64,000 bases of DNA from a phage, in sequence record PZ452581.1. The stretch is one strand, 5' to 3'. Shown here piece by piece: positions 4,168-59,113 of this stretch; positions within the stretch are counted from its first letter, which is position 1; every line of letters starts with the position of its first letter. Below the pieces are notes generated by a model. The model was not told the origin of the DNA, searched no databases, and was given only the letters and a program-made list of their open reading frames with translations. The position numbers were made by a program, and so were the translations under genes.

Positions 4168-4317
4168 TTACTGCATGACTGTGATAACTGTCATGATAAC
4201 ACGTTGAATTCCGAACGCAAGAAGACCTCCTGCTACGGCTGGAACAACACCTAAACCCGCCAGTAAAATGCTACCGGATACTAATGCAGCGCTTGTAATA
4301 CCTATGAATGGACTCAT
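4168..4317 (-). CDS. Small membrane protein (motA.1-like, 49 aa)
   Basis: Hand-translated hydrophobic ORF MSPFIGITSAALVSGSILLAGLGVVPAVAGG...; ATGA overlap with gene 52 stop. Confidence 0.45.
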   Translation of the reverse strand: MSPFIGITSAALVSGSILLAGLGVVPAVAGGLLAFGIQRVIMTVITVMQ

Positions 4318-5642
4318 TTGATTTCCTCTAAATCTTTAGTGTATTCGGTAACTACATCAGTAGTTTTCCAATATTCGTTTTCTTCTTTCTTAGCTTTAGC
4401 TTCTTCAGCAAGTTTCTTTGCTTCGTCGGAAGTCATATGAAAAATATTCATTCCGACTAGTTTATCAACATAAGAAGAATACATCTCAATTTTAGAAAGT
4501 TCTTCGGTCAGTTCTTTACGAGTTTTACCTTGAACAACAATTTCACCTGAAATTACTTTCTTAATGAAATGTGCCTTGGCAAAGGCTAAACGAAAAGCTG
4601 ACTCAGTTTCTTTGATTTTGTTATCAATTCGTTTTTGGACATAAGTTTTACGAACTTCAACAAAGTCTTTAATTAAATCAACTACGTTATCGTAAACTTG
4701 CAGTTTTCCTTTCTCATTAATGACGGTAATATTCTGAGAACGACGCTCAATCAACCCGAAGTCTTTCATAATTTTTGCATGGCGTTCTTCTTCATTATCG
4801 CTCAAAGAATATTCTTTACGGAATTTAACTTTGAATCCAAAACCATGCTCACCACAAGCATCATCCCATGTAATGAAGCCTTTATCTTCAAGTGGGTCTA
4901 AGATTTTACTCACATAAGTTTCACGATCATACTTATACGGAATCTCAGTGATATGCATTTGAGTTCGTGAAGTAAACTTATATGTTCCACGAATTTCATA
5001 TTGCCCATCAATTTCAACGACTTCACCACGAAATTCTGGGAATTCTACCTTCGGTTTAGTTACTTTCTTTCCTTGAAGAGCTTGCAGTACAGCTTTCTTA
5101 ACAGAAGAAACACTATGAGGAAGAATGTAAGTTGCATAACCAGTTGCAATACCGGAAACGCCATTAAGAAGAACAGTAGGAATAATAGGCAAATAGAAAG
5201 CAGGCGGAATGTGTTCTTTATCTTGATGTACCGGAGCATATTCAGTATCTTTATATACGTTATAGAAATTTTTACTTACACGAGCAAAAATATAACGACT
5301 TGCTGCTGCTTTTTGGACGGTACGAGAACCAAAGTTTCCTTGACCATCTAACAGAGGAAAGTTATTATTCCAAGTGTTAGCCATCAAAGCACCTGCGTCT
5401 TGCGCAGAGTTTTCACCATGATGATATCCAAGGTCCGCTACACCACCTGCAATAGAAGCAAGTTTGTGAAACTTATCTTTATTTCCTCGTGCCAAATCAA
5501 GAGCTCGAGCAATAACAAATCGTTGGACTGGCTTAAATCCGTCAATCATATTTGGGATAGCACGATTTTCAACCGTGTACATAGCATAAGCCAATGCTTC
5601 ATTATCAATGATACTTTTTAAATCGCGATTATTCAGTTGCAT
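4314..5642 (-). CDS. 52: DNA topoisomerase II medium subunit gp52 (GyrA-like)
   Basis: 442 aa; cleavage-religation domain motifs (PVQRFVIARALDL..., GQGNFGS); same length as T4 gp52. Confidence 0.95.
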   Translation of the reverse strand: MQLNNRDLKSIIDNEALAYAMYTVENRAIPNMIDGFKPVQRFVIARALDLARGNKDKFHKLASIAGGVADLGYHHGENSAQDAGALMANTWNNNFPLLDGQGNFGSRTVQKAAASRYIFARVSKNFYNVYKDTEYAPVHQDKEHIPPAFYLPIIPTVLLNGVSGIATGYATYILPHSVSSVKKAVLQALQGKKVTKPKVEFPEFRGEVVEIDGQYEIRGTYKFTSRTQMHITEIPYKYDRETYVSKILDPLEDKGFITWDDACGEHGFGFKVKFRKEYSLSDNEEERHAKIMKDFGLIERRSQNITVINEKGKLQVYDNVVDLIKDFVEVRKTYVQKRIDNKIKETESAFRLAFAKAHFIKKVISGEIVVQGKTRKELTEELSKIEMYSSYVDKLVGMNIFHMTSDEAKKLAEEAKAKKEENEYWKTTDVVTEYTKDLEEIK

Positions 5643-5646
5643 AAAT

Positions 5647-5787
5647 TTACCATACTAGTGAATGTAGTGCCATAATAACATCAGAAATGAAAAGCACGAC
5701 TTGAATTAATCCGAACATTACTCCATAATATAGTGCTACCAATAAAGTAGCAAGGGCTAGTGAATAGCCCAAGATTTTCTTAATCAT
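5647..5787 (-). CDS. Small membrane protein (52.1-like, 46 aa)
   Basis: Hand-translated hydrophobic ORF; start overlaps ac stop (ATGATTAA). Confidence 0.45.
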   Translation of the reverse strand: MIKKILGYSLALATLLVALYYGVMFGLIQVVLFISDVIMALHSLVW

Positions 5788-5938
5788 TAGTAGATAACAA
5801 CACAAATGTTAAATATGCACACATACCCTGGGCTAAAGCTTGTGAAAACACACTGCTAGCATCGATACAGATAGTTAAAACACATGCTACTATCCAACAA
5901 ATAAATGAAATAACTCCTAATAATTTTGCGATATTCAT
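5780..5938 (-). CDS. ac: Acridine-sensitivity membrane protein Ac (52 aa)
   Basis: Hand-translated 52-aa hydrophobic ORF at the T4 ac position between 52 and stp. Confidence 0.55.
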   Translation of the reverse strand: MNIAKLLGVISFICWIVACVLTICIDASSVFSQALAQGMCAYLTFVLLSTND

Positions 5939-5945
5939 ATTTTCC

Positions 5946-6026
5946 TCACTGGCGTCCGAAGACGCCTTTAGTTTTAAGATTGTTACGATAAAACTGCATC
6001 ACATGTTCGTTGTGGAAATTACTCAT
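5946..6026 (-). CDS. stp: Stp peptide (26 aa)
   Basis: Hand translation [26 protein letters not shown] matches T4 Stp as recalled; TAATG overlap with ndd stop. Confidence 0.8.
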
Positions 6027-6484
6027 TAATATGCCTGCAAAACGAATTTAAAGTTATCAGCCAACATACGGTTCATTTCTTCAAGTGTTTGATACTCAGA
6101 ATGATGATTACGAGTAAACGCCAAAGCTAACTGACCTTTACCAAATCCTGTCGTCAGAGGTTTCATCTTAGAAGCAGGCAGATAAAATACTGTGTATGGA
6201 ACATTGTTATTTGCAATAGTACGCGCAAGTTGAGACCGGCGTTGACGAATATGACTTAGAACTGCGCTGAATCCTTGCTTAGAACGCTGATTACCTACAT
6301 AAAATCGTGCAGACACACATGGATTACTAAATGGACGACCATCTAATTTACTCACTAAAAAGTAAAATCCAGGTTTAGATAAAATATCTTTATGCGGAGT
6401 TCCTAAAAACCATTCACCACCCTTAATTGTACCAATAACAGTAGCGCCTGCGTTGTTCAGATCGGTAACAGTCATATATTTCAT
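6026..6484 (-). CDS. ndd: Nucleoid disruption protein Ndd
   Basis: Track ORF 6026-6532 trimmed to internal Met ([28 protein letters not shown]...) preceded by GAGG SD; matches T4 Ndd N-terminus and ~151-aa length. Confidence 0.88.
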
Positions 6485-6544
6485 ATTAATTTCCTCTAAA
6501 TTATTTTCTACTCCAAGGCCGTATGAATACACACGGCCATTAAA

Positions 6545-6760
6545 TTAATCGTCGCAGTCGACGCTCAATTCCCAAAACTCTTCTACAGTATAAGTTTCAG
6601 TATCATTTTCAATACAGAAACGTTCATTACTATTATTTGCTAAAGTAGCATTAACTGTCGGTTTCTCGCTAGTGCTCTTAAGAGGTGAAATACGAATTAA
6701 CTGATCACCATTATCTAAACAGAAAATTTCACCAACTTTTACATCTTTAAAACTTTTCAT
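6545..6760 (-). CDS. Hypothetical protein (ndd.1-like)
   Basis: 71-aa ORF. Confidence 0.5.
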   Translation of the reverse strand: MKSFKDVKVGEIFCLDNGDQLIRISPLKSTSEKPTVNATLANNSNERFCIENDTETYTVEEFWELSVDCDD

Positions 6761-6875
6761 AATTCACCTCAAGGAGTATAAAATCCAAATGCAGTTGTTG
6801 ACCATCCCATCCAATATGGGAAATTTGCGCCAATGTAAAACATAAGAATATAAAACCAAATGTTTAGTAAATTCA

Positions 6876-7094
6876 TCATTTTACACCATTCCAAATTGTT
6901 TCAACTACGGATTTTAAACCATTTTGATGAATATCCATTCCGACTACCGCCATCAAATAGATTCCAACTACAACTGAACCTAAGGCAAAAATCAGCATGA
7001 AAATGAATAAAGCCGGAAAAATATTATCGAAAAACCATTCAATAAATGTAAAAGCACTACGTTTACGCTTCATATTTTCCTCACATAAATTCAA
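6876..7094 (-). CDS. Small membrane protein
   Basis: 72-aa ORF with hydrophobic core. Confidence 0.45.
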   Translation of the reverse strand: MNLCEENMKRKRSAFTFIEWFFDNIFPALFIFMLIFALGSVVVGIYLMAVVGMDIHQNGLKSVVETIWNGVK

Positions 7095-7194
7095 AGTAAG
7101 CGTTTAATACATCAATCATTAAAACGATTGGGAATATACTCAAAACTATTAGTATTATAACTACATTCCATATAGCTTTAATAATCTTTTTCAT
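7081..7194 (-). CDS. Small membrane peptide (about 37 aa)
   Basis: Track ORF 7081-7290 reads through the promoter; internal Met MKKIIKAIWNVVIILIVLSIF with GGAGG SD is the likely start. Confidence 0.4.
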   Translation of the reverse strand: MKKIIKAIWNVVIILIVLSIFPIVLMIDVLNAYFEFM

Positions 7195-7214
7195 TTTTGT
7201 TCCTCCGTAGTTGA

Positions 7215-7252
7215 TAGTTGTATAGTACCACGGAAGAACAGTCTTGTAAACA
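7215..7252 (-). promoter_or_regulatory. T4-early-type promoter
   Basis: Minus-strand GTTTACAAGACTGTTCTTCCGTGGTACTATA with conserved leader and GGAGG SD. Confidence 0.55.
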
Positions 7253-7436
7253 ACTTTTTTAAAAATATTCGTAATAAATGTGAATACCAACTACTACCGC
7301 TGAAACCTGTGCAACCCACCACGCACAAGCAATAAGTACAGAATTCAAAATTTTCATAATAACCTCATTACAAAAGTAAATGTTAAACAAATTACTGGAA
7401 TACTAATTAACCAAACAAAACACCACCACAGTGAAC

Positions 7437-7700
7437 TCATAACTCAATCTCAGCGATTTTCATTTCATTACTATTAATAGCCGCTTTAAGACTATCTGAA
7501 AGAATTACATCCCAGTGGTCATTCATATGACCATTAATTAAGCGTGTAATTTCTTCGGGAGTTGAAAAATAAGGCGTATCAGACTCCCAATGCGATAATC
7601 CTAAGCGAGTATAAATCATACCTTCATCATCGCTAGAATATTCAACTGACACAAACTCATCAGTTATTTTATGTTTAGCGTAATAAAATTTAAATTTCAT
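7437..7700 (-). CDS. Hypothetical protein (about 87 aa)
   Basis: Track ORF 7437-7802 trimmed to internal Met MKFKFYYAKHK preceded by GGAG SD; upstream part is read-through of promoter sequence. Confidence 0.5.
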   Translation of the reverse strand: MKFKFYYAKHKITDEFVSVEYSSDDEGMIYTRLGLSHWESDTPYFSTPEEITRLINGHMNDHWDVILSDSLKAAINSNEMKIAEIEL

Positions 7701-7729
7701 TTTCCGCTCCAAATCCGTATCAGTTGATA

Positions 7730-7765
7730 GTTGTATAGTACCACGGTCCTTGTGGTATGTAAACT
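7730..7765 (-). promoter_or_regulatory. T4-early-type promoter
   Basis: Minus-strand GTTTACATACCACAAGGACCGTGGTACTATA with conserved leader caactatcaactgatacgg. Confidence 0.55.
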
Positions 7766-7783
7766 GTTTTGTGAAATTTTTTT

Positions 7784-8341
7784 TTAAATGGAAAGATACC
7801 ATCCGTTGTAGTTGCTTTTTCTTACAACCTTACGAAGGTCTTCTCTGTCACCGATGAACTTCGGAGTGTACTGGATGACACCTGGATGAATTTCTTTAGT
7901 GTTGAATATAATTATACAGTCAGCGACTTGATGATTTAGAATGGGCCCTAAATTTATTCCAGAACCATATGGATACTCTCCGCTGCATCCCGTTGTTACC
8001 GAAATCCAACGCGAGTCAGTTTGATGTGTCTTAACTTCTACACGAAGCCCACAGTATTTTGGATGTGCTAAAACATCCCATGCATATGTGTACGGATCAT
8101 CGACATCTTCTTGGCCTTTATTGACATATCCGCTTAGCCAATCTGCCACAAAAAACTCTGCGTACACAGCGATACGGCATCTTTCGATAACTTCTGCCTT
8201 ATCCTGATTTGGATTTTGTTTTAAAGAGTATCTTGCTGTATCAGCAATTTTGACCTTCATTTCACTAGTCAAGTCACTGTTCGATAGGGTAAATGTCGGA
8301 ATCTGAAATAGTCTCTGTAAACCCGGATTCGTTTTCTGCAT
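7784..8341 (-). CDS. denB: Endonuclease IV DenB (dC-specific)
   Basis: 185-aa ORF at the T4 denB position between ndd cluster and rIIB; length matches T4 DenB. Confidence 0.75.
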   Translation of the reverse strand: MQKTNPGLQRLFQIPTFTLSNSDLTSEMKVKIADTARYSLKQNPNQDKAEVIERCRIAVYAEFFVADWLSGYVNKGQEDVDDPYTYAWDVLAHPKYCGLRVEVKTHQTDSRWISVTTGCSGEYPYGSGINLGPILNHQVADCIIIFNTKEIHPGVIQYTPKFIGDREDLRKVVRKSNYNGWYLSI

Positions 8342-9604: not shown

Positions 9605-11782
9605 TTAGGCCGCAAGGGCCTTCATAGTTTTAGCGATTTGGGAAACTTCATCATCGCTTAAAGAATTGCGATAACCGATGAAGTCGGAAACAATACGGAA
9701 TTTCTTGGTAAACTCAGCAACCATTTTATCACTATTTTTTGAAGCATTACGTGATAATTCATCAAAGAGATTAGTTACTGTCCAGATATCATGACCGATG
9801 GTATCTTTTCCACCATTGAAATACACACCGCGTAATGAACTAACCATATTACCAAGTCGTGTATATTCTTCAGAAACTTCATCTGTACTGAAGTACTTCA
9901 TCATAAAATCTAGTTCAGGATACTTGATAATTTTATCAATATATCGTTGAGCTGAACTTGAATAACCTACATACTTATCATAATCTACATCATCAAAAGC
10001 ATCTACATATAAATCACGCAAAGCTTCAAAAATACATTGGCACTGACCGAGTTCTTTTACCTTTTTCTGTAAAAGCGGACGAATAACATAAAATTCATTA
10101 ATGCCAATAAGATTAGCCATACGAATCAAAATATTCATAGATGGATGACAAAGTGATGTAGTACCATCCATAGAGAAAATATCAGAACGATGCATATACG
10201 CTACATAACCAGTAATTTCATCTGCTTCTGACGTAAGTGTAAATAATTCCTCTTTTTCCCAACGCCCATCTTTAATTTCAAACTTAAATGCTGTAGCAGC
10301 TTTAGGACGAGGAGCTTTACTTTTAACTACCTTTGGAATATAGCTTTTAACTAAAGCTTCAATTTCTGACAAATAATGAATGTTAACTTCATCACTTTCA
10401 AACATTGCCATAATATCAGGTAGTAAATCAATCTGCGATTCTACTTCCGGATTAATAAACAGAAGACGCTCATTGTGATGAATATTTAAAGTGTTATTAA
10501 ATTCACTATCATCTAGCGCATGTGCTAATCCACGGACAATATTAACACGATTTTTAATATTATCAATAACGATATTAATTTTTGTTGTATTAATACCAAA
10601 CAGACGATAACTTGACGCAACGGCTGATGTTTCATGACTTTGCTTAATGCGCTTCAGTCGAGGGTCAAGATTTACTTCATATACAACTCCTGCATTACAT
10701 AACTTACTGTCAGGTTCAAACATGCTCTGCATTTTCTTATATGACAGATTTTTAGTCGTGAATTTGACTGAATTACTAATCATATAATCTCGAGCAGAAT
10801 ACCCCATCTTCATCAATTCACGATATGTGTGACGAGGAGATGTAGATTCTTTAAATCGTTTTACATCTTCATTAAATGCTTTCTCACTAAGCTCTTTAAC
10901 TCGTTCAATAATATTTTTACGAGTGCGATCATCTAATGAAAGAGCTTCACGTGATGGAGCAATATCAAGTGAACCCATTGGAAATTTAATGTAATTCACT
11001 TCATTACGAATGCTTAGCCAGTTACGGTCTCTAATAACACCATCGATAGGATAAACAATACCACCATAGATAGCATATAATCCACCACGATCAGGCCAGT
11101 ATCTTTCTGGATTTACACCGTAATAGTCATCAAAATCCGGAAAATAATCAATTTCGCGGTCAAGACCATTAATGATAGCCAAATCTTTGAACGGTCGCAT
11201 GATATAAGAAACTTCATAAGCAAAGTTTCTAAAGTCTTTTTCTTCAACTGGAACTACGATTTCAATACCAGTTTTATCATCTGGACCCATTTCTTTCACG
11301 AATGTAGGTTTAATTTGTGGACCATCGCCATCCATGTAAGCTACATAACCACGAATTTCACCTTTATGATACGAAGTAATACTAAATGTATCAGTATAAC
11401 TAAACGGAGATTTAGAACCTAAACCAAATCCGCCAATGAAATCGTTAGATTCAGCCTTAGATGAACTGAAGTATGAATTATACAAACCAGGAGAATTATC
11501 ATCACCCTGAATATCAAAATCACTCATACCCGGACCAAAATCTCGGCAAACAAATCGTGGATCTAAACGTCCAGGAACTTGAATGATAAATTTTTCAGGA
11601 TTTCCATTGAGAGCATGGGCATCAATCATGTTGGTAATCAATTCACGGACTACTGCGCGAATTTTGTTTGTATACAAATCAGATGACAGAATTTTAAATA
11701 CTTTAGGAGATGCTGTGATGCTAAATGCTTTTGATTTAGAACCATTACCAAGAATTGTTTCTTTTTCAGTGGTGATAATCAT
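9605..11782 (-). CDS. rIIA: rIIA protein
   Basis: 725 aa, N-terminus [56 protein letters not shown] matches T4 rIIA. Confidence 0.96.
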
Positions 11783-48290: not shown

Positions 48291-48422
48291 TTAAATTTTC
48301 CAATTACCATTTTCATCAATAAATTTAATCCAGTCATTTACTGACCACTTGGTCGTATCGCCTTTTGGAGCAACATTTAAAGTATATAATCCCTGTTTAA
48401 AAAGCATGCGTTTGATATTCAT
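48291..48422 (-). CDS. Hypothetical small protein (about 43 aa)
   Basis: Track ORF 48291-48506 trimmed to internal Met MNIKRMLFKQGLY with GAGG SD. Confidence 0.4.
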   Translation of the reverse strand: MNIKRMLFKQGLYTLNVAPKGDTTKWSVNDWIKFIDENGNWKI

Positions 48423-48429
48423 ATTTTCC

Positions 48430-48723
48430 TCAGCTGTAACGATAGCACTCGTTTGATTTACGCTTAGCAACTCGTTGAGAAGTATTGTAATCAAAATCAT
48501 CGTCAATGTAAACTGATTTTTTCAACTTTCTTACTTCACCACGTAATTGACGATTTAACTCATCTTTAACTTCTGAATCAATGCCTTTCATTCTACGCCA
48601 TTTATCTGAGCGAAAAATGTTTTCAACCATATCTTTATGACTTACACCATCAGGAGCTTTACGCTTTCCGAAATAGTCATAATCACGTACTTTTAAATCT
48701 TTACGACGATACGTTTTACCCAT
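48430..48723 (-). CDS. Hypothetical basic protein (about 97 aa)
   Basis: Track ORF 48430-48762 trimmed to internal Met MGKTYRRKDLKVRDY. Confidence 0.45.
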   Translation of the reverse strand: MGKTYRRKDLKVRDYDYFGKRKAPDGVSHKDMVENIFRSDKWRRMKGIDSEVKDELNRQLRGEVRKLKKSVYIDDDFDYNTSQRVAKRKSNECYRYS

Positions 48724-57807: not shown

Positions 57808-58698
57808 TTAAGATTTAAGTAAATCAACAATTTTAATTAATTTTTCACGTTCAGATTTAGCTTTACTACTCAATCCAGATAGTCTGAAAATTTCATCGTC
57901 ATATTGTTGAATAGAAATATTCAGCTCTTCAATTTGCTTATTAAAATAATCAATTTGTTCAGAATGTTTTTCGTTACTACGAACTGGTGCAGGTTTTATA
58001 GGCAATTTAGTTGAACTGGATTCATCCGGGCGATAAATTAAAATACAACTTGAACCAATCGGACATTTAGCACCAGACACATATTCTAATGTTCCAGCTT
58101 CTTTTAAAATTTCAAAAGCTAAACAGAGATGATGACCCATATTGGCATAATCTGTAGAGTGAGCTCTGACGTAATAATCATCTCCACGAGTGCTAAATTT
58201 AAAGCATTTAAGGTCTTCTGTATTATTAGTTTTAAAAATCATTTGTTTATCTAGACCTTTAGCCAATCGAGCGCCTAATGCTAATAATCGTCGTTGATTT
58301 TCCCACAAATCTGCGATCATTTGGTCAAATGATAATTTCGGCATTAGTCGACCATAAAGGTCATATCCTTTATTATAATTGCGAAGGATTTCACTCGCAT
58401 TAATACGAGACAACGCTCCAATTTTATTAAGGGCTTTCATGATGCGATTAGATAAACTCATTCCAGATCCGTTTGTTCGCTGTAAATGTTTTTCTAATCC
58501 AAATCCAATATCAACTTTAAATTTATCTAAAATTTCAGCATGAACATCTCTGTCAATAACATTCAAATCCAAAGTTGGGTTAAATCTATGAAAAAATTTA
58601 TCTGGCTCTCCACGACGAAGTACAGTCCATTCATTCATCATTTTTTTATTAACTAAAGATTTAATTACTGCATTGACATTATTAATTACTACTGACAT
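57808..58698 (-). CDS. Paralogue family member D
   Basis: Track ORF trimmed to Met MSVVINNVNAV with GAGG SD; about 296 aa; C-terminal coiled coil. Confidence 0.55.
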   Translation of the reverse strand: MSVVINNVNAVIKSLVNKKMMNEWTVLRRGEPDKFFHRFNPTLDLNVIDRDVHAEILDKFKVDIGFGLEKHLQRTNGSGMSLSNRIMKALNKIGALSRINASEILRNYNKGYDLYGRLMPKLSFDQMIADLWENQRRLLALGARLAKGLDKQMIFKTNNTEDLKCFKFSTRGDDYYVRAHSTDYANMGHHLCLAFEILKEAGTLEYVSGAKCPIGSSCILIYRPDESSSTKLPIKPAPVRSNEKHSEQIDYFNKQIEELNISIQQYDDEIFRLSGLSSKAKSEREKLIKIVDLLKS

Positions 58699-58705
58699 AT
58701 TTTCC

Positions 58706-59113
58706 TCACTCAATTTCAATTTTACTAAATATACAGAATAAGATGGAACAGACTATATAAGCACCACACACAGATTGAACTAATACCATTCCAAAGAACC
58801 AAACAATATTATCAAACCATGTCTGTTTTACGTCGAAAGGACGTAAACTTACAGTAATATTATCACCTTTTTCTATTGAAGAATACATCTCTGGGGAAAT
58901 ATATTCACTAAATCTATAACCGTCTTTGAGTTCATATACAGCAATAAACGATAAACTAGACCCTTTTCCTTGTGTTCCTGTAATGGTATTAACTACAGTA
59001 ACATCATAATCTTTATAATGCATATAATCATTAATTGCGTAATAACCATATGCAACTACTACGCATAAACAACATATCAATAAATTCAATCTTTTAATTA
59101 TCAACCGTTTCAT
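58706..59113 (-). CDS. Membrane protein
   Basis: 135 aa with N- and C-terminal TM segments. Confidence 0.5.
   Translation of the reverse strand: MKRLIIKRLNLLICCLCVVVAYGYYAINDYMHYKDYDVTVVNTITGTQGKGSSLSFIAVYELKDGYRFSEYISPEMYSSIEKGDNITVSLRPFDVKQTWFDNIVWFFGMVLVQSVCGAYIVCSILFCIFSKIEIE

Follow-up and report, generated by a model that had tools for sequence, protein, structure and literature searches.

The DNA analysed here, called the window below, is a stretch of 64,000 nucleotides from a phage (sequence record PZ452581.1), and its minus strand has no open reading frame (ORF) of 60 aa or more over positions 5643-6025, between the genes for the nucleoid disruption protein Ndd and the medium subunit of topoisomerase II (gene 52). 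The question raised by this interval is whether it encodes genes too short for such a cut-off and, if so, which ones. The original prediction, made by reading the sequence alone, placed here three ORFs of 46, 52 and 26 aa that are chained by overlapping stop and start codons and are absent from the track of ORFs of at least 60 aa, and it took the 26-aa product to be the Stp peptide of phage T4. By sequence comparison, positions 5647-6026 almost certainly contain the known T4 genes stp, ac and 52.1 in the T4 arrangement, in a T4-like phage (Tequatrovirus), and no evidence contradicts the identification of the three as T4 genes.

Gene layout and correspondence to phage T4

In the direction of transcription the order is ndd - stp - ac - 52.1 - 52, as established by sequence reading and the listing of ORFs, with the coordinates re-derived from the peptide sequences:

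6026-6484, minus strand: ndd (nucleoid disruption protein), the upstream flank; ATG start, 152 aa; 317.8 bits to PF06591
5946-6026, minus strand: stp; ATG start, 26 aa, TGA stop
5780-5938, minus strand: ac, a hydrophobic micro-protein; ATG start, 52 aa, TAA stop
5647-5787, minus strand: 52.1, a hydrophobic micro-protein; ATG start, 46 aa, TAA stop
4314-5642, minus strand: gene 52 (topoisomerase II medium subunit), the downstream flank; 442 aa; 259 bits to PF00521

Positions 5647-6026 thus run exactly from the stop codon of 52.1 through the start codon of stp. The TAA of ndd and the ATG of stp share one base (TAATG). Between the stop of stp and the start of ac there are 7 nt, the TGA of stp lying within the Shine-Dalgarno sequence of ac (GTGAGGAAAATATG); ac is preceded by GAGG and a 5-nt spacer. 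The genes ac and 52.1 overlap by 8 nt, the TAA of ac falling inside the first codons of 52.1 (ATGATTAA), and 4 nt separate the TAA of 52.1 from the ATG of gene 52. The coordinates, lengths and peptide given in the original prediction are correct, as are both overlap strings that it quoted and the absence of the three genes from the ORF track. Its description of the micro-genes as overlapping holds in part: true overlaps occur at two of the four junctions in the chain from ndd to gene 52, namely ndd/stp and ac/52.1, whereas spacers separate stp from ac and 52.1 from gene 52, and within the trio only the ac/52.1 pair overlaps. Two longer mechanical ORF calls, a TTG-started 52-aa form of 52.1 (5647-5805, which contains the ATG form) and a GTG-extended 168-aa form of ndd, were rejected, homologues and the T4 annotation favouring the ATG starts.

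The T4 reference genome (NC_000866) has the same gene layout, with 52.1 at 165209-165349, ac at 165342-165497, stp at 165505-165585 and ndd at 165585-166040, and the same 8-nt and 1-nt overlaps. Alignment to the T4 products bears out the proposed identity of the 26-aa peptide: Stp is identical to its T4 counterpart (NP_049878.1) at all 26 residues, and the two genes match at 78 of 81 nt, differing by three synonymous nucleotides only. The peptide also matches the Pfam anticodon nuclease activator family (PF08133, Nuclease_act; 75.3 bits against a cut-off of 25, residues 1-26 aligned to profile positions 1-26) and phrog_6763 (annotated as activator of host PrrC lysyl-tRNA endonuclease; 75.4 bits). 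T4 stp shares with the window gene the TAATG junction after ndd, a C(UUCG)G hairpin and the TGA-in-Shine-Dalgarno junction to ac. The T2-type peptide (T2 YP_010073913.1 and phage YUEEL01) shares the N-terminal 18 residues and the position after ndd, but has a different C-terminus (...KNFGILGFKK) and lacks the CUUCGG hairpin. The window carries the T4-type allele. The N-terminal 18-residue core is intact in the window, and its pattern, MS[NS][FWH]HNEH[VI]MQ[FWL][YH]R..[LI]K, is present in every Stp homologue collected.

The other two ORFs were matched to T4 ac and 52.1 by position, length, near-identity and family profiles. Ac is identical to T4 Ac (NP_049877.1) at 51 of 51 aligned residues and has one inserted threonine (LLSTND versus LLSND), the result of an in-frame 3-nt insertion before the C-terminal ND in the hydrophilic tail, making it 52 aa instead of 51. 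It matches phrog_2501 (88.6 bits, E-value 3.7e-25), no Pfam family was found for it in a Pfam profile search, and it lies between stp and 52.1, as in T4, where Ac has the same 8-nt overlap with 52.1 and the same hydrophobic character. The 52.1 product is identical to T4 gp52.1 (NP_049876.1; also 46 aa and directly upstream of gene 52) at 45 of 46 residues, Thr14 in the window being Ala in T4, and matches PF24129 (DUF7396; 81.9 bits against a cut-off of 27, residues 1-46 aligned to profile positions 1-46) and phrog_3595 (90.2 bits). The PHROGs matches of Stp, Ac and 52.1 have E-values from 1e-21 to 1e-25.

The flanking genes are likewise close to those of T4: gp52 is identical at 440 of 442 residues, and Ndd, with 149 residues identical, differs by two substitutions and an additional residue (152 versus 151 aa). 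A 501-bp region covering the interval matched 550 phage records, 435 of them at 95-99% identity and 18 at 99% or more. The closest record for this region is phage GiZh (99.6%), but identity in the best 24-kb match falls to 96.5%, so the phage is a Tequatrovirus not identical to any record in the collection. Nothing in the interval departs from T4 biology, and the gene identities were already known.

Coding status and substitution patterns

Short ORFs are abundant in this DNA (51 of at least 20 aa in 4 kb of the ORF listing), and a lone 26-codon frame is unremarkable; the mere existence of the ORFs therefore proves nothing, and the evidence lies in homology and selection. The notion that ndd and gene 52 are separated by non-coding DNA in which all three frames are open by chance has to be set against full-length matches to curated families far above cut-off (Stp and 52.1 in Pfam, all three in PHROGs) and against identity or near-identity of all three products to genetically defined T4 genes. 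Substitutions, counted by the method of Nei and Gojobori, weigh on the same side. Between the window and T4, stp has 3 synonymous and 0 non-synonymous changes, and between the window and the siphovirus RP180 (Kagunavirus) it has 10 and 0 over 24 codons (pS 0.82, pN 0), that is, synonymous sites near saturation with no amino-acid change. The comparison of ac with that of a close relative (L016) gives 5 synonymous changes and 1 non-synonymous, and 52.1 has a pN/pS of 0.09-0.25, at a pS of 0.4-0.7, against other Tevenvirinae lineages (L011, L014, L010). Among 41 IMG/VR loci (L007-L047) retrieved by gp52 and scanned with the four proteins and for ORFs, the 52.1 frame is kept at 44-46 codons in the approximately 30 that have a homologue, down to about 30% identity. 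By these counts all three genes have changed as translated sequences do when purifying selection acts on them, and the pattern of conservation, as read from the alignments, refutes the chance-frame explanation, whose probability is next to nil.

A different reading would make 52.1, and perhaps ac, mainly leader ORFs that feed ribosomes to a gene 52 weakly equipped with a Shine-Dalgarno sequence, their peptides being incidental. It would account for the spacing of 4 nt from 52.1 to gene 52, whose ATG has no clear Shine-Dalgarno sequence ahead of it, for the 8-nt overlap through which a 52.1 without a Shine-Dalgarno sequence of its own follows ac, and for the presence of 52.1 homologues just 5' of gene 52 in most Tevenvirinae loci examined (4-75 nt upstream of it, where found among the 41 IMG/VR loci). 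Such a role does not explain why the 52.1 peptide itself is under the purifying selection described above, nor why the motif LYYGV.FGLI..VLFISDVI....L[IV]W is kept across genera, which a pure coupling role would not need; and some genera keep gene 52 without any 52.1 homologue (L018, L031-L033, L035, L036, L038, L039 and L045 among the loci scanned). We regard a mainly leader function as very unlikely, with the proviso that a leader role and a peptide role of 52.1 are mutually compatible.

The extra threonine codon of ac might also suggest that the window carries an inactive allele, as T-even phages have known spontaneous ac-null alleles and the T2 reference genome (NC_054931, locus L048, 1113-1154) has a truncated ac annotated at just 42 nt (13 codons). 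The insertion is, however, in frame and confined to the hydrophilic C-terminal tail, and the gene shows the excess of synonymous over non-synonymous change already noted against L016. Furthermore, all the other close relatives examined (L002, L007-L009, L016 and L034) have the 52-aa form, leaving T4 as the odd one out; because of this the insertion is not to be considered a defect, and an inactive ac is most improbable.

Predicted roles of Stp, Ac and 52.1

The genes stp, ac and 52.1 are known as non-essential early micro-genes, and a single early or delayed-early message is probably read through them as a translationally coupled chain, to judge by the spacing of the junctions: TAATG, the stop codon within a Shine-Dalgarno sequence, the 8-nt overlap ATGATTAA and the 4-nt gap before gene 52.

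Since the window Stp is identical to the characterised T4 peptide, it is expected to have the same activity. This cytoplasmic peptide of 26 residues would act on type Ic restriction complexes (EcoprrI and EcoR124I) to inhibit DNA restriction; in hosts that carry prrC inside the hsd locus, the same interaction would unmask latent PrrC, which would cut tRNA-Lys 5' to the wobble base, and T4-type phages would mend the cut tRNA-Lys with polynucleotide kinase and RNA ligase 1. Stp may thus be described as an anti-restriction peptide that the host exploits as an infection alarm. Like Stp, T7 Ocr and ArdA counter type I restriction at an early stage of infection and can be sensed as an alarm by abortive-infection systems of the host. 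Both are larger, acidic DNA-mimic proteins with no known sequence relationship to Stp. Stp, in contrast, is a basic or neutral peptide of 26 residues that is specific to type Ic (PMC3014915).

In T4, latent PrrC, an anticodon nuclease that acts on tRNA-Lys, needs Stp for its activation, and Stp suffices for this (PMC3014915, a review of work by Kaufmann and colleagues that includes Penner et al. 1995); the description of Stp as the PrrC trigger in the original prediction agrees with this and with the product name in the T4 reference genome. The peptide relieves type Ic restriction (EcoprrI, EcoR124I) but not type Ia; its activity is carried by the N-proximal 18 residues, with suppressor or loss-of-function mutations clustering at residues 4-14, and removal of the 8 C-terminal codons has only a moderate effect (PMC3014915). 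Activation of PrrC requires GTP hydrolysis, an unmodified EcoprrI DNA substrate and dTTP, and the cut tRNA is repaired in T4 by Pnk and Rnl1 (PMC3014915). Neither pnk nor rnlA had a match in the window (tblastn with T4 Pnk and RnlA as queries, E-value 1 or less), which is uninformative because the T4 map puts both elsewhere, at 134-137 kb.

Both remaining products are strongly hydrophobic (GRAVY 1.42 for Ac and 1.68 for 52.1), in agreement with the T4 annotation of both as predicted membrane proteins. Hydropathy averaged over 15 residues has two maxima in Ac, one of 2.8 across residues 5-25 and one of 1.7 around residues 34-48. Ac may be a small inner-membrane protein whose presence makes infected cells accumulate more acridine, perhaps through a block of AcrAB-TolC. 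Wild-type ac makes T4 acriflavine-sensitive and loss of ac makes it resistant (bioRxiv 10.1101/2025.06.30.662393; PMC13250531); the proposal that the membrane protein Ac blocks AcrAB-TolC comes from the same preprint (bioRxiv 10.1101/2025.06.30.662393) and is repeated in PMC13250531. The name "acridine resistance protein" that most records use is therefore misleading, because the intact gene confers sensitivity and its loss gives resistance.

The 52.1 product is probably a conserved membrane micro-protein, hydrophobic throughout and long enough for two membrane crossings. The T4 deletion saΔ9, which removes 52.1, ac, stp, ndd, ndd.1-ndd.6 and denB, is viable, yields about half as much phage as wild type and loses phage-stimulated phosphatidylglycerol synthesis (PMC6071114).

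The interval in other phages, its RNA features and its annotation

In the 41 IMG/VR loci, from across the Tevenvirinae, the interval between ndd and gene 52 (approximately 1650-2500 in most) varies in content: it is an array of 0-5 ORFs, each 25-60 aa long, that are closely packed and translationally chained, and Stp alone among their products is not hydrophobic. The recurrent families number at least six: phrog_5941, Stp, Ac (phrog_2501), a 53-aa family with the sequence MxILVFIEL, a family of 43-44 aa, and 52.1 (DUF7396). Of the three genes present in the window, 52.1 is the most widely retained across genera, Stp and Ac each being limited to a subset of lineages, and diverged proteins of the Ac family (phrog_2501) reach further lineages. 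The 57-aa family phrog_5941 occurs in many loci and is missing from the window and from T4. Plastic regions of small membrane-protein genes are an established picture of T4-type genomes; the variable array fits this picture and adds no new principle.

In phage SholemSchwarzbard (locus L002, 1575-1748), a 166-bp insertion falls exactly where the stop codon of ndd would meet the start codon of stp (equivalent to window position 6026) and adds a 57-aa hydrophobic micro-gene (phrog_5941, 96 bits), the stop codon of which overlaps the stp ATG (ATGAGTAA). The same insertion between ndd and stp is found in phages ime09, Sf22, JLBYU22, A2 and Sf24. Two loci have two copies of stp each (L012, 1819-1899 and 2117-2191; L037, 1762-1842 and 2060-2134): one copy is of the SP18 type, intact and followed by an Ac-like gene, and in the other, of the T4 type, the ATG and first residues have been replaced. 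The T4-type copy without an ATG is likely a remnant of cassette recombination.

Stp-family peptides also occur in siphoviruses:

L005, 2501-2578: Stp-family peptide of Kagunavirus RP180
L006, 2501-2578: Stp-family peptide of Ro145clw
L051, 901-978: Stp-family peptide of Nouzillyvirus PH1062
L052, 901-981: Stp-family peptide of Tlsvirus PHB07
L053, 901-981: Stp-family peptide of Segzyvirus LPSTLL

Each of these peptides, 25-26 aa in length, has its own Shine-Dalgarno sequence and start codon; they are encoded in regions of early genes, for the most part without annotation. With 35-70 bits, every one exceeds the cut-off of PF08133, and that of RP180 is identical to the window peptide at 24 of 25 residues. 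Profile databases already include the siphovirus peptides, and no discussion of Stp homologues outside the T-even phages was found in the literature searched; as judged from these matches, the occurrence of Stp-family peptides in several unrelated siphovirus groups appears to be the only mildly new point of the analysis. We tentatively suggest, while leaning slightly against it, that Stp is a horizontally shared and strongly constrained anti-type-I-restriction peptide well beyond the T-even phages, and that PrrC-type guards police a wider range of phages than the T4 paradigm implies.

In the RP180 genome, ORF19-21 (L056 13561-15727) also include a PNKP-type HAD phosphatase domain that stands alone (PF25109, 69.9 bits); next to it are an ORF with weak similarity to metallophosphoesterases and a 184-aa ORF that bears an ATPase annotation but has no assignment here. 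The annotation of RP180 lists no RNA ligase. The phosphatase may represent an RNA-healing function that travels together with Stp.

Two nucleic acid features mark the 3' end of stp in the window:

5951-5966, minus strand: C(UUCG)G tetraloop hairpin GGCGUCUUCGGACGCC, in stp codons 20-25 (GVFGR), just 5' of the ac ribosome-binding site
5936-5948, minus strand: stop-in-Shine-Dalgarno junction TGAGGAAAATATG, consisting of the stp TGA, the ac Shine-Dalgarno GAGG and the ac ATG, read from the sequence

The hairpin has a predicted 6-bp stem, and its 61-nt context has a minimum free energy of -13.6 kcal/mol (z = -2.6). It is identical in T4, in SholemSchwarzbard and in five IMG/VR loci (L011, L012, L037, L040 and L047, with gp52 81-83% identical); SP18 stp has a UUUG loop instead, and among the alleles compared those of the T2 type and of Kagunavirus lack the hairpin. 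Because Kagunavirus keeps the GVFG residues without it, the constraint on the Stp peptide is independent of the hairpin.

The 13-mer TGAGGAAAATATG, which combines a stop codon, a Shine-Dalgarno sequence and a start codon, has 4 exact copies in the window (5936-5948, 7071-7083, 48420-48432 and 58696-58708) and 5 copies with one mismatch (at 11780, 21141, 32170, 34207 and 39693), all on the minus strand, against 0.24 expected; it is a stereotyped, generic gene junction of this genome's early strand. CTTCGG is also enriched across the window (35 copies versus 12 expected), and both the enrichment and the recurrence of the junction are general T4 features that are not specific to stp. Three different genes follow the hairpin and the TGAGGAAAATATG junction in different phages. 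A dedicated recombination joint for downstream swaps, formed by the 3' hairpin of stp and the 13-mer, was considered and rejected, the 13-mer being generic (9 copies) and CTTCGG generally enriched. The hairpin was also rejected as a terminator on the coding strand, where no T-run follows it. On the plus strand the hairpin stem is followed by TTTAGTTTTA, and this arrangement scores as terminator-like with an unexceptional fold (z = -1.3); some public records annotate a "terminator" at the equivalent of 5951-5966. Scanning the complete window for Rfam families and tRNA genes gave no hits.

The expectation that length-filtered annotation would miss such genes was borne out, all three products being shorter than 60 aa. 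Among the 30 best DNA matches, just two records (phages ph0021 and SholemSchwarzbard) name Stp, the GiZh record has only Ac annotated between ndd and gene 52, and several records annotate none of the three. A tblastn search with Stp matched 818 phage records (423 with an identity of at least 99%), and among the matches listed most have only ndd annotated under the Stp match, touching it by one base. Stp is missing from most public records of T4-like phages because gene callers and length filters drop ORFs of 26 codons. For this window the importance is one of annotation hygiene only, and the understanding of how Stp, Ac and 52.1 act is unchanged. Stp is among the best-studied phage triggers of an abortive-infection nuclease, and mining of annotations alone for anti-defence genes or defence triggers would miss it.

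Further micro-genes of the early cluster, at 4168-7440, have strong PHROG matches, and five of the six are below the 60-aa cut-off:

4168-4317, minus strand: motA.1, 49 aa, PHROG match
6769-6879, minus strand: ndd.2, 36 aa, PHROG match
6876-7073, minus strand: ndd.2a-type gene, 65 aa, PHROG match, just above the cut-off
7081-7194, minus strand: ndd.4-like gene, 37 aa, PHROG match
7259-7357, minus strand: ndd.5, 32 aa, PHROG match
7354-7440, minus strand: ndd.6, 28 aa, PHROG match

In T4 just 106 nt separate ndd.6 from denB; in the window an ORF lies between them on the minus strand (7437-7802; 121 aa from the first ATG). Its match to phrog_2390 covers residues 35-121, so its start is probably at 7700, giving a product of 87 aa.
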